Part shown: one piece after another, positions 17,217 to 50,201 of the stretch | Position numbering within the stretch: position 1 is the stretch's first letter | Layout: the number at the start of each line of letters is the position of its first letter | Notes under the pieces: model-generated | What the model was told of the DNA's origin: nothing | What the model saw: the letters and a program-made list of their open reading frames with translations, nothing else | Databases searched by the model: none | From: Pseudogymnoascus verrucosus | Taxonomy: Eukaryota | NCBI GenBank assembly: GCA_001662655.1 | Contig: KV460207.1 | Strand: one strand, 5' to 3' | Length of the DNA stretch: 64,000 nucleotides | Translations under genes and position numbers: made by a program

Positions 17217-18037
17217 AGGTATCTAGCAAGGGGTTAATATCAGCTTCCTTTCTCCGCATTCCAGCTTATGGTTTTAAGGTACGTACATCCAGTGCGTAAG
17301 TGCCTACGTCGACCCATTTTTATCGATTCTATAGACACCCTAAGCAAGCTTCTATAAAGGTAAAATCTCATAGTATAAAAAAGCTAGGGACGCGATGTGA
17401 TTTAATTATTCGATGTTATATAACTCACTATAAGACAAGACTTAGATACTCAGCTAAAGAGACAGCCTCGGCTCGTACTAATAAACCACGTACCCCCGCA
17501 GCACTCGCGATCTACGCCTCTTAGGGTATGGATCATTGGGCATTTAGAACCCTGGTACAGTAGCTCGGTGCGGGGCATTCTATAGAAATCGACGAGATCG
17601 AAAGTAGCTTCAGCAGTGGAGTAACTTAGGAATGGGTTTATGGCAGTCTGCCACGGAGTATATTGTAGTAGGGCTTATCGATAAGAACACAATGGATCAT
17701 CTCAGACATTGGCTGTTATGTAAGCATGAATTTTGTCTCCATCGAATCTCGAACCTCCTTAAACTTGTGCCTGAGAGATTCACGGCTTTCGGGGTAATTA
17801 TTGGTGTTCTTCTACGTACGCAACTTGTATACGCAGACTGCGTGCGCAACCGATCGCAGCCTGAAAGTTCTCTGGTTTTCTGGTTCTCTAGCGGATCGGC
17901 GCGCATGTCAAAAATATTTCATGTGATAAACGAGGGACAACGACCATATAAAAAAGGTCCACAAACATCAACCCTCAAATCCCAATCGCAGGTTGAAAAC
18001 ATAATTCACCCAGTATAATCTCTCCTGACACATCATC

Positions 18038-19534
18038 ATGTCCAGCACCCAAGCGGCCAGCAAGGCCGACTTCGATGTCATCATTATAGGGGCAGGCATC
18101 TCCGGTATCAATGCCGCCTACCGCGTGCAAACCGAGCTCCCCAATGCCACCTACACGATCCTCGAGGCCCGCGACACCATAGGCGGGACCTGGGACCTCT
18201 TTAGGTTCCCCGGTATACGTTCCGACTCCGATCTCCACACTTTCGGCTTCGAATGGCGGCCATGGCAGGCCAAAAAGGCCTACGCCGACGGCCAGATGAT
18301 CTTAGATTACATGAAAGACGCCGCAGCAGCCTACGGTATCGACGAGAAAATCAAATACCACCACCACCTCACCGCCGCTGACTGGTCCTCCGCCGATCAG
18401 CTGTGGAACCTCGAGGTCACTGCTAATGGCGAGCCTAAGACCCTCACCGCTCACTTCTGTATCATGAGCACAGGGTATTATGATTACTCCAAGCCTCTCG
18501 ATGCCGACATCCCCGGTCTGGAAAACTTCAAGGGGACTGTCGTTCATCCGCAATTCTGGCCCTCAGACCTCGATTACTCGGGAAAGAACATGGTCGTCAT
18601 CGGATCCGGCGCCACCGCCGTCACACTCCTCCCCGTCGTGGCAGAGACAGCTAAACATGTAACCATGCTCCAGCGCTCGCCCTCCTACATTCTCGTGCGC
18701 TCCTCAAACACCCTTCAAGAGCGCGTTATGCACGCCATCCTACCGCGCTGGGTCGCGCTGAAACTAGTCCGATGGACATGGATCATCCTCCCTTGGATCT
18801 TCTTCCGCTTCTGCAAAGCCTGTCCCGCGGCCTCCAAGTCGCTGATGATCGCACTGACGAAGATGCATTTGCCTAAGGGCACGAAGATGGAGCCGGATTG
18901 GGTACCATCTTATAACCCCTGGGAGCAACGCCTCTGTACCAGCCCTGATGCGGATTTTTTCCTGGGCTTGAAGACGGGGAAGTCAGATGTGGTGACAGGG
19001 ACTATTTCCCAGGTGTCTGCTGACGCCATTAACCTCGATGACGGAAGGACCCTGCACCCCGATATCATCGTCACAGCCACCGGTCTCCGCATCTGCTTCG
19101 CCGGCGCGGTCACCATATCCGTCGATGGGGAGAAAGTCGATCCCTCCAGTAAATACATCTGGAAAGGGATGATGGTCCAAGACCTCCCCAACATAGCCTT
19201 CCCGTCCGGGTACCTTCACTCTTCCTGGACCCTTGGCGCCGACGCCTCAGCCATCATGACTTGTCGTCTCATCAAGCACATGCAGACCCAGAATATCAGC
19301 GCGGCGATTCCGAGGCTAAGCCTTGGAGGGGAAGAGGACATGGAGGATAGCTCGTGGAAGATGTCGAGTACGTATATGAGAAGGGGGAAGAGTGCGCTGC
19401 CGAGGGGAGGGGATAGGGGGGCGTGGTGGTCGAGGAATAATTTGTGGAAGGAGCTTGTTGCGGCGAGGTGGGGGAATTTGACGAATGGGTTGGAGTTTGT
19501 GGGGGGGTCGAGATGGGGGGTAGGTGGTAACTGA
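18038..19534 (+). CDS. Flavin-containing Baeyer-Villiger-type monooxygenase (EthA-like), intronless, 498 aa
   Basis: GAGISG, GGTWDLFRFPGIRSDSD, the fingerprint FKGTVVHPQFWP, a second Rossmann GSGATA, and ATG. Confidence 0.95.
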   Translation: MSSTQAASKADFDVIIIGAGISGINAAYRVQTELPNATYTILEARDTIGGTWDLFRFPGIRSDSDLHTFGFEWRPWQAKKAYADGQMILDYMKDAAAAYGIDEKIKYHHHLTAADWSSADQLWNLEVTANGEPKTLTAHFCIMSTGYYDYSKPLDADIPGLENFKGTVVHPQFWPSDLDYSGKNMVVIGSGATAVTLLPVVAETAKHVTMLQRSPSYILVRSSNTLQERVMHAILPRWVALKLVRWTWIILPWIFFRFCKACPAASKSLMIALTKMHLPKGTKMEPDWVPSYNPWEQRLCTSPDADFFLGLKTGKSDVVTGTISQVSADAINLDDGRTLHPDIIVTATGLRICFAGAVTISVDGEKVDPSSKYIWKGMMVQDLPNIAFPSGYLHSSWTLGADASAIMTCRLIKHMQTQNISAAIPRLSLGGEEDMEDSSWKMSSTYMRRGKSALPRGGDRGAWWSRNNLWKELVAARWGNLTNGLEFVGGSRWGVGGN

Positions 19535-20605
19535 AGGAAGGGGTAGGAAGGGAGGGTTGGAAGGGCCATTCTTGTCTTCGATATTGCTTTGGACTCAGCT
19601 CAGGCCGGGTCGGTGTTGATACCCATATATAATTGGTTCTGTGGTAGGAAATAATACACGTATTTACCATATCAATAATTACCATGTCAGAGAGCCGCCC
19701 TGCATCCGAACCGCTCGCAACAGTCCCCACAATGCCTGGAATACATATATATATTGTCAGAACGTCTGTCATGGGAGTATGGAAGGTACGGCAATTCAAA
19801 CGCGAGCAGAAGATTGCGATGTCGTGAAACAAAAATCCGTAAGAGAAAATGGCTAACAATCCAACAGGACCGTAGCTTCATTGATGATCTCCCGTGCGAA
19901 TAGCAAGAAATAGGACGGTGGTGAGAAAGCAGATGTAGCGAGAAAGAGGAACGGTAGCTACAAGTCGGTGTGGTGAGAAAGGGGGAGCGGTGATATTTGG
20001 CGGACAACGAGACAAGCTGGCGCGTTGAGGCAGGCAAGGCCGCGCGGATCTGACAAGCAGTCTAGAAATGTTCTGGCACATCACCGATCGCGCTCTGGCA
20101 TCTTTGAAGTTGGACTTATCTCAGTACAGACGGGACTTTAAAGTCACAAAGAAGGTGGTGGTGAAAAAGGGATACTTATGCGGATACATGCATCCAGACT
20201 GTCTCTGTCCTGTATCGCTGCCTCCAACACTGGAGTCGTACAAGAGCGGCTCAGCTTACCATACCCCTTCAGCAATTTTCAAACGTTTATTCCGAACGGG
20301 TCACATAAACTGACCCCTTACCTTATGTAGCTCCCGGTTGAAGCAAGGGCCCGATCGATTGAAGGGCGGGTCAGGAACATAATCACAAAGCACACCAGCA
20401 GTCACACCTGTACTACAAACGACGATCCACAGCAAAGACGCCAAGACAACAACGTCGTCTTCTCATGCTTTTTCCATTCTCCGATATATACGCCTCATTA
20501 TGCTCAGGGTATCCCATTTGTCCCCGCTCCCGCCCGGAAATCATCGTAGACCACTAAATGCTAATATACAGTGTATGCAAGCCTGATAAAACTCCATCAT
20601 CCCAA

Positions 20606-23362
20606 TCACTCCTTCTCCACTGCAGCCGCATCCCCCTCCACCATAGTGGTATCATCGCCCTCCGCCACGGCGCTCACAGCCTCGGTTGCGCCCTCATCCT
20701 TCGCCACATCTCCCTCCGCCATAGTGGTATCATCACCCTCCGCCACGGCGCTCACAGTCTCTGGTGCACCCTCATCCTTCGCCACAGCGCTCACAGCCTC
20801 GGTTGCGCCCTCTGCCTCTTCAGCGACAGGGGCCTCTTCCGTCTCAGCAGCGTCGGTTTGGAAGATGTATTTCTCGAGCTCTTCGAACGTGCCGGTCAAG
20901 TCGTCGTTAATGAGGATCTTGTCATGGAAGCCTTCAATCTCGGCGTGTTTGATCTCCTCAGCCGCAGTCTCAAGTCTCTGCTTGACCGTCTCGTCGTCGT
21001 CTGTGCCACGAGCGCGGAGGCGCTTCTCCAGCTCCTCCATGCTCCGTGCGTTGAGGAAGATGAAGCGGGCGGGGTAGGACTGGTCTTTGAGCTGTTGAAT
21101 TCCCTTTGTCTTGTCAGCAGCCGCTCATATGTAATAATTAGGGGAGAAAGATTCATACATGAAAGTCCATCTCCATAACCGGGACCTTGCCCGACGCCAC
21201 GATCCCCTCGACGATCTTCTTACTGGTGCCGTAGTCATTGCCGTTGAAGTTGTTGAACTCAAGGAACTGGTCGCCATCGCGCATCATGGCGTAGGTCTCA
21301 GGGGTGATGAAATTGTAGTGCGTTCCATCAACTTCGCCTACCCGTGGCGCGCGTGTAGTGTGTGAGGCCTTGCGACCGAAGAGTTTCGGGTGTTTGTCGA
21401 TGAGCATCGAGATGAGGGTGCCCTTGCCGACGCCGCCGGGTCCGGAAATGACGACGGGGCGTCGGTCGACAGGTGAGATATCACTCGTTCCGTCCATGTT
21501 GTCGATCGGGCTGCTCGTGTCTTTTTCGATCTCGATCTCAGCTACAGGTGGCTTGTCCTCGAAAATATAATCGATCTTCTCCGCGTCGTCTATCTTATCA
21601 AAGGCAGCTAGCTTTGTTTTGCTAGCGACTCTCAGAGCTCTCCAGGTTTTGCTTGCTTTTCCGTAGATGGCAGCTTCTTTTGTGTCGTCGTTGGTTGGCA
21701 TGTCGATTTCCATGTCGTCAAGCGCGATTTTATCTTTGAAGCTCGCTAAAGGAGGTAATGAATAACGCGACGGATCCTTTAATCGCTCCATACCTATGAT
21801 TCCGTCCGCCTCACTCAGAAATCCAAGTTCGAGCGAGCCCATCGGCTTCGGCCTTAGCCGTTTATTTGTAGTAATCTTTTTTGCTGTAGCTTTTGCGGCG
21901 AGGTACTCTTCTGGCGTCACGGCTGGCCTTTCTATAGATGGACAGCTTTCAATCTTCCAGCGCACCCAGTGCTTATCTCGTGATAACACTGTTTCAACCA
22001 TCCGGTAGAAAAAAGGCCCGTCGTAGCCCTGTTTTAAATAGTCGGCTATAGATTTCTTGGTATCCACTGCCCATTTTACATCGTCGTCGCTGAGGATCTG
22101 ATCTTGGTACATTACTGAGAGGTTTTGTTTGGTGGTGGTTGCTTGCTTCTCCTTCGCCTTGCTGCCGAGTGATATCAGGAAATCCATTATAATAAGTGCC
22201 TGAACCAAAATATGACGACGGAATGAAAGATCCTTGATCTCAAGTTCGAACAGGTCTCTGCTAGTAAGGTATTTGGGGTTGAAGATGTGGGCCAAGTCAT
22301 CATCATCCTGTCGTCGCTTTCGCTTGGTGCCCCTATTTTCATCGTCGACAGGCTTGGAAGGACCGCGATTGTTTGATTCGTTCTGTACCGATCGAAACGC
22401 CGTAATCGTCGAAGTTAGCCCTTCTTTGAACTCTTTAAAACGCTGTGTGTCGAACAGTCCTTTTGGTTGACTGAAGCTCTGCTGCAAAGACCAGAAAATG
22501 GGGTATAGATCGTCAGAACTCAACGGCTTCTCTGATTGAGCAGTTGAAGCAGCATTAAAAGTAACCTTCTTGGCTTCTTCACTCATAGGTGTGTCTGCAG
22601 CGGGTCCTGTGGGCGTAGGTTTAACAGCCGCATCAACTTCCATCTGGTCCCCCTGGATTTCCCCTTTCGCAGGTATTTGGTCGAATGTTGTCACATTCTC
22701 AACATGGTATTCGCCCCTCAGATTCACAGAACTCTTGTCGCCCAGAGGGAAACTCTGGAACATGAAAATGAAAACCCGTCCACAGAATGCCGTGTCCTCC
22801 GCCCGTGAGAGTCGTCGTAGGAGCTCATTACAACTTCTCAGTATCGCCAATTTCTTTCCTGCGAAGTCCTTTGCAATTATGCGCTCCCGCCTTGACTCCA
22901 GGTAATCCAAAATCTTCCGGCACCCGGCGATAGTCTGGCTGTCGAGGAGTTCTTCGATGAGCCAGAAGAGCAGGGCTGGGTCGCATTGTCCGTCATCGGA
23001 GAGAGTCGATACGATATCCAGCAGATTCCACACTTGGACAAATTGAGGTTGTTCTATGGAATAAGTGGCCTAGTCCTGGTTAGAATTGGTCGACGTTCGC
23101 AAGTTGTAGGGATCCTCACCAGGAGATCGATAAAGGCGTCTCGGACAGCTATTTCGATAACCGCATATAAAGTTGATTTCTTCGTATCGCGTCTCTCCAC
23201 AAAGTCTGGTAGCTCTTGGAGTCGTCGAAATCCCTCTTCAATGTCCGCTTTCAATATGGGCGGCTCGATACCGTTTGTTCGTTTGACTTCGCTGGCTTGC
23301 GCCAACATATCACCAAGGAGCCCCTTGCACTGATTGACCGCCTCCACTTCGAGAGCCGCCAT
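20606..23362 (-). CDS. THO1: THO complex subunit 1 (Hpr1/THOC1) fused to a C-terminal guanylate kinase domain, 3 exons
   Basis: THOC1 motifs LRSCNELLRRLS..DTAFCGRV, DKSSVNLRG, PKYLTS and WVRWK..C. The same exon continues in frame into a GK domain (VISGPGGVGKGT, SHTTRAPR.GE.DG.HYNF, RLRARG, INDDL). Introns at 23070-23119 and 21104-21158. Confidence 0.9.
20631..20812. repeat. 78-bp coding tandem repeat (2 copies plus a partial) in the THO1-GK tail
   Basis: 20631-20708 and 20709-20786 are near-identical and encode VAKDEGATEAVSAVAEGDDTTM-type units. Confidence 0.85.
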
Positions 23363-23643
23363 AACGATTCATATGCGGCGCAATGCCAATCCCAAGTACT
23401 TGAGTTTGGATTGCGTCTGTTGTTGCTGAGTGAGGCGCAAGCTACTCGACAAATGCCCGATCCAGCATTCTTGAGGCTCTAGAATTACCTACTATCTGCG
23501 GGCGGCACTAGTCCAAACCTTAATTCACCAAGTCACATGACGTAGATTTTGGTGCTTGACCATCATAACGCGGTTCAACTTCAGATCATGAAGCTTAGCG
23601 TGTTGCGCAAACATCAATCGCCAACCGCAATTCCTCTACGATA

Positions 23644-26600
23644 ATGGCGCCGAGGACAAGGGGCCCCGTGGAGCCTCGCAAGGAGGTGGATGATGGCCGG
23701 CCTACGGTCGCGGATCTCCAAGGCGAGAGTCCATTCGCCCAACTCGCAAAGAAACACTGGCTCAAGCCAGGCAAGAAAGCTGCGAAGGTCAAAATAAAGC
23801 CACAGGTGTTGAGGAAGGAAATTTGGGATGTTCTTGAGCAGGAGGGTTTCTCATATAAAACGCTCCTGGTTCTTGAGAATCTGCAAATCCTCGAGAGGTA
23901 TGCGCATCAACAAGCCTTGTGTTTGCCCATACTAATTATACTGCAGCTACCTATGGCCTGGGTTTTCGGACGATGCATCCAATCACCATGTGCTCCTGAT
24001 CGTTTTGATTTCTAATGTGCGCAGTCGGGAGCATTTACCTGTATGGAGTAAGTGAAGACCTCTGTCCCAACTGGTTCTTGGGTGGAAACTGACAATCACA
24101 GATATATACTCTGATAATCCTGCCGATTTTTCGTTATTATTTCGACGTATACTTTCAATGACTCTGGATAATACCCTTTCGCCAAATATACGAACACACC
24201 TTCTCTCTTTTATAATAAGCGCCTTCCAATCCCTAGACAGTGGCATTGTCCGGAAGGAATGCGCTCCGCTGGTGTCGATAGCCGTCTGGCATAACCTTTC
24301 AAGCGAGAAGAAGCGAAATAATAAACTGGATGAAAGCGTTCAGTTGAGAAAGGTCTGGAGGGCATCCGGCAAGCGATACGAGGCTGCAGATGATACGACG
24401 AAGGCAAGGCTCCGTTTCGAGAGGTCATGGCTGTACGCCATGCTGCTCGATTTCTTCAACCAATTGCATGACACAAAGAACAAATCAGACAATCTTCTGT
24501 ATTGCGAACGTTTCCTCGAGCTGCTGTCCGACTTTCAAAGTCAGTTGCCGACCCGGAGATTTGTTAATACGCTGCTGCAAGATTTGAACACACTGCCCCT
24601 TATAAGGCTATCACCACTGTTCAACGACGAAGGCAGTGGGCTATTGCGAGATCTATATGGCTTGTTAAAGCATTACACGTACTTTTCCCTTGACGACCAC
24701 ACTGGGATCCAGTATACCGGAGAGGAGACATACGAGCGCCATTGCACGCAGCTTGGTCGTTTACAGCGCACTGCCCTTAAACACTACAAAGATAAGCTCA
24801 CGATTCTTGCCTTATCAAATTATGGCTCCATCGAAAAGCGAGAAGACCTCGAGGGTCACCTAGAAACGTTGACAGATGATGAGTTAAAGGCTTATTGCGA
24901 GCTTCTTGATCTCCGTGTATCGTATCCAGACTCGGCCAATGTTGCGGGTGGCCGCCCGTTTTTACTGGAGGTTCTCGTGTCTACGTTTGAGAGACGGAAG
25001 ACATTCCAGGACACAGCCCGTGATCTGAGTATTCTACCGACAGAAGAGACTTTGTTCGAGCCAACATTATTGCGGAATGAGAGCTACAATGGATCTCAGC
25101 CGCTAGCTCTGCCAAAGCTCAACTTACAATACTTGACTGTTGGCGACTTTTTGTGGCGCTCATTTATCCTGCACCGCTGCGAATCCTTTTTCGAGATCCG
25201 CAAAGATATCGAAGATACCCTTAAACGACTGCGGCCACAAACTAGCAGAACAGGAGAAACGAAGTTCGACGGGTTCTCAAAAATGGCACTGCCAATTTCG
25301 AAACCGGCTATTCTCGAGGTCGTACCCCCACTTGTCGGCGAGACGAAGCCTGCTGCCGTGAAGGCAGAGATCGCTCTGGATGTGAGCCGTCTTGCGGAGA
25401 ATATACGTCGAGAATGGGAGTCGTTGCGGCCAGATGATGTAGTTTTTCTTCTGGCTATAAACCTTTCTAACCGTAGTAATCTGATCTCAAACGGCGAATC
25501 AAAAATTAGCGATCAGCAAAAACTAGGCATAAGGCATATTCGAGCTGCCGAGGTTACTCAAGTACTAGATGACAATGGGCGTCCTATGAGAGACTTCAAC
25601 GGCCAGACTAATGGCCGTGGGCAAGCGCGGCTCCGTCGACTGCACATCAAACTCGACGCTGCTATGTACAAGCAGGACTTGGATAGCGCTTCGGCTGGCA
25701 AACCTGATGTCTACGAGTCAATCAATGTTATTGTGCGAAGGAGAGGTCGGGAGAACAACTTCAAGTCGGTGTTGGAATCTATTCAAAGCCTGACATTATC
25801 GGACGTTCCACTTGCTCCGTGGCTTCACGAGGTCTTCCTTGGCTACGGCGATCCAGCAGGAGCATCCTACCCGCAGTTAGCCAACAAGATTAAAAAGGTG
25901 GACTATCGCGATACGTTTCTCAATTGGCATCACCTGATTGAGAGCTTGCCTGGCAAGACGGTTGAGCCCAGCGAAGAGGCAAGCGGTAGCTTCGGTCCGC
26001 CTTACGTCCTTAACACTACAGAGAGCGTATCCGCGCCAACCCCTACCAAGCCTTCAAAGAAGAGACGTCGTGGTCAGGAGGATGTTCCAGCGAATGTTGC
26101 CCCTCCAGTTGTCGAAGTCTCTACTTACAAGCCGCCAAACACTGGGCCATACCCGATGGACGAAGTGAAACTTAATCACGTTCGTTTCACGCCAGCTCAA
26201 GTTGATGCCATTCTCTCTGGGACACAGCCAGGCCTGACTGTAATCATTGGCCCTCCAGGAACGGGCAAAACCGATGTGGCAACTCAAATCATCAATAACA
26301 TATACCACAACTTCCCCAAGCAGAGGACTTTGCTTATTGCACACAGCAACCAAGCTCTCAACCAGCTATTCCAGAAAATTGTCGCTCTAGATATTGATGA
26401 GAGACATCTTCTTCGTCTGGGACATGGTGAGGAGGAGCTCGACACTGAAAGCAACTTCAGCAAGCATGGTCGCGTTGAGTCTTTCTTGGAGAACAGAGAC
26501 AGGTATCTGCTTGAGGTGGATCGCCTGGCTGCAAATTTCGGTGCACCTGGAGCGCATGGTAGCTCTGCCGAAACCGCAGGCTACTTCAACTCCGTTTATG

Positions 26601-28114
26601 TCCAGCCTGCCTGGGCGAGATTCCAGGAGGCACTCAAAGATCCGGAGGTAACCAAAGAGACTGTTATCGAGCTATTCCCATACCACCACTACTTCTCCAA
26701 TGCCCCGCAACCGCTTTTCCCTGCCGAGGCGGATAAAGCGGGCGTCATCGAGATTGCCAGCGGATGCAATTATCACGTCACAAAGATCTTCACCGAACTT
26801 GCCGATGTGAGGCCCTTCGAAATCCTTCGCCGGGATCGCGATAAGGCAAACTACCTTCTCACAAACGAGGCACGCATTATCGCCATGACATCAACGCATG
26901 CAGCAATGCGGCGACGAGAAATCGCTGATCTCGGGTTTCACTACGACAATGTCATCGTCGAAGAAGCAGCCCAGATCACCGAGATCGAAAACTTCATCCC
27001 CCTTGCGCTTCAGACTCCGAAGAACGGGATGATGCCCCTCCAGCGCGTCGTCCTCTGTGGTGACCACTTCCAAAACTCCCCGATCGTTCAAAACCTCGCA
27101 TTCCGTCAGTACGCGAACCTCGAACAGTCGCTTTTCTCTCGTCTCGTGCGTTTAGGCGTTCCTACTGTCATTCTCGACAAGCAGGGTCGTGCTCGCCCAT
27201 CCATCGCCGAACTTTACCAATGGCGTTACCCGCACCTAGGCAACCTTCCTCTCGTAGAGACTGGCCCAGAATTTCAGAAGTCGAATGCCGGGTTCAGATA
27301 CGACTACCAGTTCATCAACGTCCCAGATTACAAGGGCAACGGCGAGTCCGAGCCGACTCCCCACTTCATCCAAAACCTAGGTGAAGCCGAATACGCCGTA
27401 GCAATCTTCCAATACATGCGACTACTCGGATACCCCGCCTCCAAGATCAGCATTCTAACTACCTACGCCGGCCAGCGCGCCCTGATCAAGGACGTACTCA
27501 CCCACCGCTGCGCTAAGAACCCCATCTTTGGCCTCCCCAAGATCGTCACTACAGTCGACAAGTACCAGGGCGAGCAGAATGACCGTAAGTTCCCCCACCC
27601 CCCGCCCATAATTGCCAACTTCCACTAACCCATCTCCCTAGACGTCATCCTCTCACTCACCCGCACATCCCGCGTCGGCTACCTCCGCGACGTGCGGAGG
27701 TTAACAGTAGCCCTCTCCCGCGCCCGTCTCGGTCTCTACATCCTCGGCCGCCGCGAAGTATTCGAGTCCTGCTTCGAGCTTCAGCAGGCATTTGAGATTC
27801 TCTTCCGTCGCCCGGATAAGCTCATGCTCGTTACCGGCGAACTCTGGCCTTCGCAGCGGACTATCGCGGATGAGGCGGATGATGTGGAGGTTGTCGGCGT
27901 GACGCCCATGGAGGGGGTTGAACATCTGGGGCAGTACGTGTTTGAGATGACGAATGCGAAGGTGCAGCAGTTGCGGGCGGAGAGGGGGGTGGGAGAAGAT
28001 GTAGATGTCCTGGCTGCCGTGGAGGAGATGGATGAAGGAGAAGAGGTTGCTCTTGATGGCGAGGTGGAGGAGGAGGCTACTGTGGATGGCTTTGAGGCGG
28101 AGGAGGCGGAGTAA
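23644..28114 (+). CDS. cwf11: Aquarius/Cwf11 intron-binding spliceosomal RNA helicase, 4 exons
   Basis: LALPKLNLQYLT..DFLWRSF, RENNFKSVL, Walker A GPPGTGKTD, the variant motif II VEEAAQ, QNLGEAEY and TVDKYQG. Introns near 23898-23946, 24048-24101 and 27585-27641. Confidence 0.95.
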
Positions 28115-47862: not shown

Positions 47863-48639
47863 ATTGGAGTTTTGGGAGTTTGGTCACATGAAGGCATTGT
47901 TTATGCACATGACTTGCATTTGGAGGAAATACCCTGGGAGCATTGTTATGGGAGAATCAGGGGGGATCAGAGAGCGTTTGTTGCGCGATTTCTGGCGCTG
48001 GGATATGGGTCGTTAAGGGGTTGGGGACTCATGGCCTCACTTTACATAGGCCATAGAACTGGCATTGAGCCAAAATAATACAATGGCACTAGGTGCCTTG
48101 CTAATATTTCAGAGAAATGAAGACGTTAAACTCACATTTACAAAATCTTGAACTGTGATTGTTACAATATCCAAGTGTAATTTATTATACAGCTAATATC
48201 ATAAATGGGCCTCTTTTTAATTCAAAAATCATAAATAGGCCTCTTTTTATATATAATATCATAAGTAGGCCTCTTTTTAATACAATATCAGGAATGGGCC
48301 TCTTTTTTTCTTATCGCGCACGTGCCTAATTATTCTGCCAGTTATATGACCAAGCATCAGCTGACTTTGACTTCCCTGCTCTAATTAAAGTTATAAATTT
48401 AATTTACATAGCAGACGACTAAGGGTATTATGATGCCCTAGCTATTCCTATGCTCCTAGACTCCTAGACTCCTAGACTCCTAATCCTCCATAAGCTTATC
48501 ATTTCAATCTTCCTGGATATTTATATCTAGTCATATGCAGGCGCATGCGACGGACAAGCTGTATGTCCTTTGCTTAGATAGTTACATACTTAGTGTGAAT
48601 AGTAGCTAGGTTAGTCACTAGATTGATTACTATAATATT

Positions 48640-49102
48640 TACTATACCTTAAATTCATAGTGTAGTATATCTTCCTCCCCTTCTTCTTAGTCTTTAACAG
48701 TCTTACATTTCAAGACAAATCTCACTAGCTGTAAGGCGGTCCTCACGTGATGACACGTGAGGTGCTACGCTGAAGGCAGCCCTACGGTAGAGCTGTCATT
48801 CAGGTATAGCCCGGTTATTAGGGTTCATAGTATAGGAAGATATATTAGGGGCTAGAGCCTCAGTAGAGGACTCTAGTCAATAGTCGCTGTATTCACGTAG
48901 ACCTATTGTTACGCTATATAACCTCTCTTCCTACCTTCTGATCTGGTTCCCTAAACTCCCGCGTGACCCTAGGCCTACGCCTTTACATTAGCTTTAAGGT
49001 CTCAGTCTAGTATAATTGCCCGTTGTCTTTAAGAGCAGCTATAATAGATAGCTTAGCTTCTTTTATTAAAGGGAAAACATCACCTATTGCTAGAGTAGAC
49101 AT
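48640..49102 (-). pseudogene. RIP-decayed MuDR-type transposase N-terminal remnant, interrupted by the solo LTR
   Basis: From ATG 49102, with the LTR and one TSD removed, the frame reads MSTLAIGDVFPLIKEAKLSIIAALKDNGQLY*TETLKLVRFVLKCKTVKD*EEGEEDILHYEFKV**. This resembles the MuDR N-terminal pattern (L.vG..F....eak.ai......R....C....C.f.v); the resemblance was judged by eye. Confidence 0.55.
48730..48987. mobile_element. Solo LTR (258 bp) nested inside the MULE-like element
   Basis: Termini TGTAAGGCG...CGCCTTTACA (TG..CA with a short terminal inverted repeat). 5-bp flanks CTAGC (48725-48729) and TTAGC (48988-48992) differ by one C/T. Confidence 0.8.
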
Positions 49103-50201
49103 TGTACGAGTAAGGATATAGTAATATACAGCTAGGAATACTCAAATATAAAATGTAAATAGAGGCAGTTAGAGTTTTCACTCGCGTAATATGTTGTAGG
49201 CGGTGAGCGATAAGAAAAAAAGAGGCCCATTCCTGATATTGTATTAAAAAGAGGCCTACTTATGATATTATATATAAAAAGAGGCCTATTTATGATTTTT
49301 GAATTAAAAAGAGGCCCATTTATGATATTAGCTGTTTATTATAAGCCCTTATTGTGCACTTGAGGGAGCTAAATATATAGCCCAAAGGCTACGAGAGACT
49401 AAAAGCTATAGGGTACCGCAACAGAGATTCGATCCAGATAATAGCAAATAATAGGCCATAATTAAGGTACGCAGGTTCATTGCCTGGTTGATTATGGTTT
49501 TAAGACTCTGAGCTAGCTTTATTTTGAAGCTGTGGCGCTTGCTATCAAGATTGCTTTTGTTAACAGGCACCAGTAACTTATACAATGACGATCACGTAAT
49601 CATTTCAAATCAAATATGTGCTCAACCTTAAATGTAAACAAATCTAATTTACCCGCAGATTTATTCTTGAGCTGCTCTGAATGGTAGCGACCATATTTTA
49701 ATACGGAGACGGTGAGACGTTACGCGCAGTAGGGCCTTGGAAAGTGCGCAACAAAATGAAGTGAAGCTTGAGAGCTTAAACCCAATCCATGATCATCGCC
49801 TCCCTTAATCTCCCGTTGTGACGACGACGACGATCAACAAATTTGGTCTACTGCATAGGCGCGCAGTACAATACCTTCCACCTTCAAATTAATTTATTGC
49901 AAAAATTCCACGTTGGAGTTTATATATTACCAGCGCCTCTGAGCCTCCACATAAACAATCTGATAACATCGACGATCTCCTCCCGAATCAGGGTAAAACA
50001 TTTATCGCACAAGCCACCAAAACGTCATATCCGCTCCCGCCAAGACCCATACCGAGGCTGCGCTCTTCTATGAATATATGAACGAAAGCCCGAAGCTGGT
50101 CTCGGACACACGAATAACTCTCGCGCCGGCGCAAGGCGCAAGATCTATTCCCTCTGCAACGAGTGCGCGACTCCTACGGCCCCTCGCCAAAACGCACCTT
50201 C

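Follow-up and report, generated by a model that had tools for sequence, protein, structure and literature searches.

A predicted THOC1/Hpr1 protein fused to an enzyme-like guanylate kinase domain in Pseudogymnoascus verrucosus

We analysed a stretch of 64,000 nucleotides of Pseudogymnoascus verrucosus DNA (GenBank assembly GCA_001662655.1, contig KV460207.1; hereafter the window), and this revealed a minus-strand gene of three exons (23362-20606; 883 amino acids [aa] by spliced translation) in which a THOC1/Hpr1 moiety is fused through a disordered linker to a full guanylate kinase (GK) domain. We hold it probable that the product is an orthologue of the fungal Guk2 family and that its kinase domain is an accessory GK. 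The THO/TREX complex packages nascent mRNA for export. The finding itself is ordinary and of modest interest, as far more than a hundred fungal genomes already have this architecture annotated and the fusion is not new; the remaining value lies in the THO side of the fusion protein, which is unexplored in the literature, and in a contrast between two fungal classes in the integrity of the GK domain.

An open reading frame (ORF) scan gave, on the minus strand, a frame without stops from 23069 to 21153 (638 codons) that runs from the THOC1 region into the GK domain. The ATG of the gene (23362-23360) lies within a short upstream ORF, the stop codon (20606-20608) closes a downstream ORF, and canonical splice signals connect the three coding pieces, with both introns in phase. 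Along the protein the order is efThoc1 domain, disordered linker, full GK domain and acidic repeat tail, the THOC1 part making up the first ~590 residues (Table 1). An earlier sequence-only reading of this DNA had proposed an in-frame THOC1-GK fusion at 20860-23362, with both parts in one uninterrupted exon. The fusion was borne out by the continuous frame 23069-21153, in which PF11957 and PF00625 lie in one exon. The claim of a shared exon held for the junction and the first ~100 GK residues, the only parts that share exon 2, but not for the remainder, as a 55-nt intron (21158-21104) splits the GK domain between MEMDFH and GIQQLKD; left unspliced, the frame hits a stop two codons in (FHV, then stop). 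Likewise, the proposed span was right in the ATG at 23362, the GK start at 21464 and the GK end near 20858, but the gene continues to the stop at 20606.

Splicing was examined on contigs from close relatives (four runs, each from a different study), which were aligned over 20200-23800, with mismatches ranging from ~5% in exon 2 to ~13% in exon 3. Single contigs of 2779, 2810, and 2889 nt, spanning 23440/23447 to 20477/20330, cover the whole coding region without introns in three of the four runs (three studies, relatives about 93-95% alike), and the fourth run covers the region in three pieces. In contigs of all four runs exactly the two predicted introns are missing: the gap at the first measures 50 nt and has GT..AG on the gene strand, while for the second the aligner gives 60 nt with 5 letters replaced, a net 55 nt, and the relatives read H-GIQQ as modelled. 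Coding-region indels in the relatives are all in frame (3 nt and 117 nt only), and over the coding region the contigs of the four runs carry neither a stop nor a frameshift in the linker, the observation that the sequence-only reading had named as fatal to the fusion. Contigs that lack introns and end at the gene borders are the pattern expected of spliced mRNA, minor isoforms being beyond the contigs' reach.

Table 1. Layout of the fusion gene in the window.
Feature	Position	Strand	Support
Exon 1: ATG, 81 codons, N-terminal THOC1 helices	23120..23362	-	N-terminus same as that of annotated Pseudogymnoascus P0001; covered by relatives' contigs
Intron 1: 50 nt, GTGAGG...CTAAC...TAG	23070..23119	-	Skipped in contigs of 4/4 runs (CT..AC on + strand)
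Exon 2: 637 codons, efThoc1, linker and N-terminal GK half	21159..23069	-	Single open frame, Pfam
efThoc1 (THOC1/Hpr1) domain	21552..23033	-	PF11957, E 6.1e-154, residues 13-506 of exon-2 product
Linker between THOC1 and GK: poorly conserved, predicted disordered	21465..21551	-	AlphaFold2 pLDDT <50, residues 588-610 of P0001
GK N-terminal half: P-loop, GMP-binding subdomain, MEMD	21159..21464	-	PF00625, E 2.2e-25
Intron 2: 55 nt, GTATGA...GCTGAC...AAG, inside GK	21104..21158	-	Skipped in contigs of 4/4 runs
GK C-terminal half: lid arginines and C-terminal core	20858..21103	-	PF00625, E 1.3e-12; yeast 1EX6 residues 113-184, E 1e-14
Acidic Ala/Glu/Val-rich repeat tail, 83 aa, and stop codon	20606..20857	-	Tandem repeat; pLDDT <50

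Both domains are complete. The efThoc1 family PF11957 was matched with 513.8 bits (cut-off 27) over profile positions 1-466 of 490, indicating full-length membership, and the human THOC1 chains 7APK_A and 7ZNK_A of the solved THO complex matched query residues 25-485 at E 1.5e-41. PF00625 (Guanylate_kin) was matched over its whole length, with positions 2-101 of 182 in exon 2 (89.8 bits) and 104-181 in exon 3 (48.3 bits), against a cut-off of 25.2. Among solved structures the best matches of the GK domain are enzymes, namely the mouse, yeast, and human GK chains (E 3e-23 to 1e-22), whereas the GK domains of membrane-associated guanylate kinases (MAGUKs) match at E 1e-8 to 1e-14 only; one structure, FAP42, a protein with many GK repeats, beats the GK enzymes. 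An AlphaFold2 model was made, from an alignment of 50 sequences, for the annotated protein P0001, which comes from a sister strain and shares 99% identity with the exon-2 product. In this model the predicted local distance difference test (pLDDT) score is about 78-88 in the GK domain, and the linker (588-610) and the tail (803-878) are disordered (<50). The best Protein Data Bank match of the modelled GK domain is the yeast GK-GMP structure 1GKY (template modelling [TM] score 0.93, root mean square deviation 1.4 Å over 184 columns, 42% identity). Linker identity to Helotiales orthologues is 13-24%, versus 59-66% in the two domains. In the tail a 78-nt unit is repeated in tandem (2.1 copies, 90% matches); the tail shares 79% identity with the near-identical strain P0001 and 26-51% among the other congeners compared; its length also varies, as 117 nt (39 codons) at 20670-20786 are absent, in frame, from all four relatives' runs.

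Ten catalytic or substrate-binding positions, numbered as in yeast GK from gapless 1EX6 alignment coordinates, were scored: the P-loop; S34, R38, R41, Y50, E69, and Y78; and the lid residues R131, R135, and R146. The functional roles of these residues are those known from the yeast GK-GMP structure. The window GK keeps all ten. Its P-loop GPGGVGKGT includes Lys14 and conforms to GxxGxGK; S34, R38, and R41 lie in SHTTRAPR, Y50 in HYNF, E69 in FLE, and Y78 in YGTS; and the three lid arginines are found in RLRARGTDDDETVKQRL, which aligns with yeast RLEGRGTETEESINKRL. In the acidic pair the window GK reads MEMD, so that Asp98 is replaced by Glu and Asp100 is kept, while the stand-alone GUK1 proteins of Pezizomycotina read LDIE, with Asp100 replaced by Glu. 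Since the latter are stand-alone enzymes, one Asp-to-Glu swap in this pair appears to be tolerated by bona fide GKs. Of the 54 columns with at least 95% invariance among 58 stand-alone GKs, the window GK agrees with 44, and the changes typical of MAGUK domains (Ser34 to Pro, a degenerate P-loop and a degenerate lid) were not found, its Ser, P-loop, and lid all being intact. Every residue that the sequence-only reading had listed (P-loop Lys, Ser, both Arg, the tyrosines, Glu, and the lid arginines) is present on the yeast alignment, and so is the change from LDID to MEMD; its description of the domain as enzyme-like, with Ser and not Pro, agrees with the best sequence and fold matches, which are enzymes and not MAGUKs. 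By its residues, the window GK is predicted to be of the catalytic, enzyme-like type.

The distribution of the fusion was examined by a homologue search with the exon-2 product, in which 8000 candidates were scored and 1554 proteins matched at E ≤0.001. Both PF11957 and PF00625 are present in all of the best 120 of these 1554, in line with the earlier suggestion that similar fusions are already annotated in related fungi. The closest of the matches listed is from Pseudogymnoascus sp. VKM F-4519 (99%), and Pseudogymnoascus proteins range from 93 to 99%. Beyond the genus, the matches listed comprise Helotiales, other Leotiomycetes, and many Sordariomycetes (Colletotrichum, Fusarium, Verticillium, Metarhizium, Claviceps, Podospora, Chaetomium relatives, and Hypoxylon), genera being placed in classes mostly from general knowledge with eight names spot-checked. 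A second search was exhaustive over 50%-identity representatives. The ten best matches reaching the query end are fused, and the next-best full-length representatives (~650-700 aa) end at query ~505-538. Three named ones among the latter, unfused THOC1 proteins of about 650-680 aa, are from Macrophomina, Caeruleum, and Vezdaea, all outside the NCBI sordariomyceta clade, and five divergent fused representatives are from Podospora, Seiridium, Gaeumannomyces, Berkeleyomyces, and Sporothrix. Because fused proteins occur in Leotiomycetes and Sordariomycetes and the nearest unfused ones lie outside sordariomyceta, the fusion seems to have originated in the common ancestor of these two classes. In a FastTree phylogeny of 92 GK domains, the 40 fused domains, including the Gaeumannomyces protein P0244, fall on one side of a branch with a support of 100, opposite every stand-alone GK, the non-fungal ones included. 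This placement is probably a rate effect, and thus no donor lineage can be named for the fused GK.

Separate GUK1 enzymes coexist with the fusion. In at least eight species the fusion is accompanied by a stand-alone GK, 190-250 aa long and with 45-53% identity to the fused domain: Colletotrichum chlorophyti, Mariannaea sp. PMI_226, Cylindrodendrum hubeiense, Cephalotrichum gorgonifer, Metarhizium rileyi, Claviceps maximensis, C. pusilla, and the Leotiomycete Cadophora gregata. A first search of the protein collection for stand-alone GKs gave no named Leotiomycete GUK1 among the matches listed, and a profile built from six short GKs picked off the GK tree and run on the same collection found at least four, from Amorphotheca resinae, Cadophora malorum, C. 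gregata, and Golovinomyces. The idea that Leotiomycetes do without GUK1, the fusion being their only GMP kinase, was dropped after these four were found. As the fused clade stands apart from the stand-alone GKs and relatives keep GUK1, the fused GK is a predicted paralogue of GUK1, and by analogy with these relatives a separate GUK1 is likely in Pseudogymnoascus. Given that a separate and highly conserved GUK1 is kept in related species, the fused GK is likely to serve as an accessory rather than as the housekeeping GMP kinase. We also noted that proteins of ~400-450 aa from protists and a chytrid (P0121, P0123, P0124, P0131, and P0388-P0399) outscore single GKs, and their length suggests that they hold two tandem GK domains.

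Next to the intact domain of the window, catalytic positions across the family are often lost (Table 2). We aligned 187 GK domains and scored the ten positions, taking as stand-alone those proteins of ≤270 aa after removal of three fused-gene fragments, and dropping rows whose GK match covered <150 of 184 positions (11 Sordariomycete, 1 Leotiomycete, and 6 unnamed). Most of the dropped Sordariomycete rows presumably belong to Chaetomium relatives; the shorter matches of the dropped rows may reflect more decayed domains, in which case the contrast is conservative. While nearly all stand-alone GKs and about half of the Leotiomycete fused GKs (the window and 7 of 8 named Pseudogymnoascus proteins among them) are intact, no Sordariomycete fused GK is.

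Table 2. Scored GK positions kept in stand-alone and fused domains (yeast numbering).
Group	Position	Kept
Stand-alone GKs	All ten	57/58
Fused, Leotiomycetes	All ten	16/31
Fused, Sordariomycetes	All ten	0/69
Fused, Sordariomycetes	Arg135	0/69
Fused, Sordariomycetes	Arg146	0/69
Fused, Sordariomycetes	Ser34	1/69
Fused, Sordariomycetes	Arg41	6/69
Fused, Sordariomycetes	Tyr50	13/69
Fused, Sordariomycetes	P-loop	43/69
Fused, Sordariomycetes	Tyr78	63/69
Fused, Sordariomycetes	Arg38	68/69
Fused, Sordariomycetes	Glu69	69/69

Conservation along the proteins differs between the classes in the same direction. In Leotiomycetes the GK domain is as conserved as efThoc1 (66% versus 59-65%), whereas in Sordariomycetes it is less conserved (33-40% versus 53-62%), with a median of 29 of the 54 invariant stand-alone columns compared with 44 in the window. 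Within the Sordariomycete domain, conservation peaks in the GMP-binding subdomain (mean major-residue frequency, 0.75), and the lid (0.55) ranks among the least conserved segments. The GK of Gaeumannomyces P0244 (Magnaporthales) has GPEGVDMSG in place of the P-loop, with no Lys, as well as THTTKARQ and a Gln at Tyr50. Two fused GKs of Diplocarpon rosae (P0029 and P0042) carry Pro at Ser34 (PYTTR), the same change as in non-catalytic MAGUK GKs. Since Sordariomycetes have lost the lid arginines and Ser34 and Leotiomycetes lose positions repeatedly, GK catalysis is, on this comparison, predicted to be dispensable across the fused family. The constant family-wide feature would be the GMP-binding pocket rather than catalysis, and lost catalytic residues together with a kept pocket would favour binding or sensing as the role of the whole family.

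A protein of this kind has been studied before. Cai et al. (2017, PMC5732230) deleted MoGuk2 of Magnaporthe oryzae (MGG_06394), described as an 'atypical guanylate kinase' with efThoc1 and GK domains, dissected it by domain, and expressed it in yeast, so the remark in the sequence-only reading that no functional study was known does not stand. Strains lacking MoGuk2 were reported to survive, their GDP and GTP being lowered and their GMP raised, while deletion of the canonical MoGuk1 was not achieved; in a heterozygous guk1 diploid of yeast, expression of MoGuk2 increased GDP (PMC5732230). The published data on ATP:GMP phosphotransferase activity of MoGuk2 are thus indirect, coming from nucleotide pools in the mutant and in yeast. 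On dissection, deletion of efThoc1 was worse than deletion of the GK domain or the P-loop, P-loop deletion being the mildest (PMC5732230). That paper treats MoGuk2 as a metabolic enzyme and the phenotypes as a defect in GTP synthesis, a THO or mRNA-export role lying outside the study (PMC5732230). A 2024 review repeats the MoGuk2 results and names M. oryzae as the sole organism with characterised Guk enzymes (PMC10879430). In our literature searches on this point no paper came up that treats an efThoc1-GK protein as a THO subunit: no full text brought THO complex, guanylate kinase, and fungi together, and of 89 matches for the Hpr1/Thoc1 mRNA-export literature in filamentous fungi, the 12 listed include none on filamentous fungi. 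By architecture and by its place in the fused-GK clade, the window protein is a predicted orthologue of the 'Guk2' family, of the MoGuk2 type. Because the Gaeumannomyces fused GK lacks the P-loop Lys, the published kinase activity of MoGuk2 appears open to question and worth re-checking against the MGG_06394 sequence itself.

In the reading that we prefer, the N-terminal part of the window protein would build into THO, and the GK module, flexibly tethered by a linker of ~25 residues predicted to be disordered, would bind GMP and ATP at its intact site and in Pseudogymnoascus would probably still make GDP. Several observations weigh against it. Yeast Asp98 is Glu in the window GK; the third P-loop position is Gly (GPGG) where stand-alone GKs have Ser (GPSG); and the window GK departs from stand-alone GKs at 10 of their 54 invariant columns. 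Among fused GKs, 15 of 31 in Leotiomycetes and 69 of 69 in Sordariomycetes have lost at least one scored position, and the intact state changes at least eight times on the FastTree phylogeny of the fused domains. Neither search of the protein collection for stand-alone GKs gave a Pseudogymnoascus GUK1 among the matches listed, although such an absence is uninformative, and the aligned runs belong to relatives rather than to this strain, their RNA nature being a guess. The same decay speaks for an alternative that we regard as possible, if doubtful, namely that the window GK is mainly a non-catalytic ligand binder, either a sensor of GMP or guanine nucleotides or a reader of phospho-proteins that employs the phosphate pocket of the GMP site, like MAGUK, and would thereby link THO/TREX with nucleotide status or a phosphorylated partner, residual kinase activity being incidental. 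Sordariomycetes have lost the lid residues R135 and R146 and S34 but keep R38, E69, and Y78 and have the GMP subdomain as their best-conserved part; losses recur in Leotiomycetes, the two Diplocarpon sequences with Pro at S34 among them; and the domain is nonetheless retained in 120 of the 120 listed homologues. The stronger effect of efThoc1 deletion reported for MoGuk2 (PMC5732230) fits this explanation, as does the MAGUK precedent, in which GK enzymes are reported to have evolved into phosphoprotein binders (PMC3335814, PMC4325336). Against a dispensable site in this lineage stand the window and 7 of 8 named Pseudogymnoascus proteins, which keep every catalytic position, as would not be expected if catalysis were irrelevant; the window residue 34 is Ser and not Pro; and the metabolite shifts of the MoGuk2 mutant were read as kinase activity (PMC5732230). 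Both options put forward in the sequence-only reading, a tethered GMP kinase and a repurposed binding module, retain support.

The remaining explanations concern the gene product rather than its function. One holds that two products are made, with an internal start site upstream of an in-frame linker Met (DNMDGTSD...) giving a free, ordinary cytosolic GMP kinase of ~270 aa beside the full-length fusion. An in-frame ATG does lie 15 codons before the GK domain, and a Met just upstream of GK is also present in the orthologues P0013 and P0069, but it is absent in the orthologues P0045 and P0096, related species have a separate GUK1, and the contigs of close relatives are continuous across the junction (though minor starts are invisible to contigs), so that we consider this improbable. 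The other, that adjacent THOC1 and GK genes only seem joined, draws on nothing more than the fact that fungal annotations often contain merged gene models and is hardly credible: there is no stop between the domains, all 120 listed homologues, drawn from two classes, share this open junction, contigs without introns bridge it in three of four runs, and the fused GKs form their own clade apart from GUK1. The contention of the sequence-only reading that the fusion is no gene-merging artefact accordingly stands on the continuous frame, on the two domains in every listed homologue, and on relatives' contigs that span both.

Returning to the tethered accessory kinase, we tentatively propose, at about the confidence given to the ligand-binder alternative, a history that joins the two. 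The ancestor would have been a tethered active kinase, and the fused GK would represent a second, independent conversion of a GK into a ligand binder, this time in nuclear mRNA packaging, whose conserved job may be guanine-nucleotide sensing or the reading of a phosphorylated partner at transcribed genes; the MoGuk2 phenotypes would then be mainly THO defects and not defects of GTP synthesis. On such a history, Pseudogymnoascus and about half of the sampled Leotiomycetes would retain the ancestral enzyme-like state, and the sampled Sordariomycetes, the order of Magnaporthe included, would have left it. Should the GK domain act on THO as a sensor of nucleotides or phospho-ligands, messenger ribonucleoprotein assembly, mRNA export, and R-loop control would be tied to guanine-nucleotide status, and the link would cover a very large fungal group, Podospora, Fusarium, and Magnaporthe among them. 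Neurospora presumably belongs to this fusion-bearing group as well. Intact Leotiomycete and decayed Sordariomycete copies offer a natural experiment on the passage from enzyme to pseudo-enzyme.

Divergently oriented next to the fusion gene, at 23598-27628 on the plus strand (ORF 24056-27628), lies a gene for an Aquarius-type intron-binding spliceosomal helicase, with the first, second, and third Aquarius_N domains followed by AAA_11 and AAA_12 (E 1e-125 for the first). In the relatives' runs it is covered by a separate contig starting at 23598-23606. As the contigs of the two genes end ~150 nt apart in the relatives (23447 and 23598), a short bidirectional promoter appears to serve both the predicted THO subunit and this helicase linked to splicing and R-loops. 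On the downstream side, a 501-codon ORF (18029-19534, plus strand) carries flavin-monooxygenase (FMO) and pyridine-nucleotide oxidoreductase domains (FMO-like, E 9e-12) and is an ordinary neighbour. Elsewhere in the window, the 2-kb block 48001-50000 has a GC fraction of 0.387, compared with 0.47-0.59 in the rest.

Compared with human THOC1 (7APK, 7ZNK), whose residues 138-557 are matched by the fungal efThoc1 core, the Pseudogymnoascus fusion differs in its C-terminal module, which is a GK domain in place of the death domain that ends animal THOC1, whereas yeast Hpr1 is not known to carry an extra C-terminal module. MoGuk2 shares with the window protein the N-terminal PF11957, the C-terminal PF00625, a length of about 800-880 aa, and a few introns, and for both a separate Guk1 orthologue coexists in relatives; the two differ in class (Sordariomycetes versus Leotiomycetes), and the window protein keeps all ten positions. 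This likeness to MoGuk2 is one of architecture, the residues of Magnaporthales being represented here by Gaeumannomyces P0244 and not by MGG_06394 itself. With the stand-alone enzymes (yeast Guk1, 1GKY/1EX6; human and mouse GUK1, 6NUI/1LVG; fungal GUK1, including MoGuk1) the window GK shares the fold (predicted; TM score 0.93 to 1GKY), the P-loop, and the nine residues. Unlike them, it is tethered to a predicted THO subunit of ~600 aa and followed by an acidic tail, reads MEMD instead of LDID or LDIE, evolves faster, and belongs to a separate clade. The GK domains of MAGUKs (Dlg/PSD-95, CASK, and MPP) and the fused fungal GKs are both GK-derived domains inside a scaffold protein, and the Sordariomycete copies parallel MAGUK in that catalytic residues decay while the phosphate/GMP pocket is kept. 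The window GK departs from that type in its intact Ser34, P-loop, and lid and in its closeness to enzymes (E about 1e-23 versus 1e-8 to 1e-14 for MAGUK), and the fused fungal GK is of independent origin and would belong to a nuclear complex.

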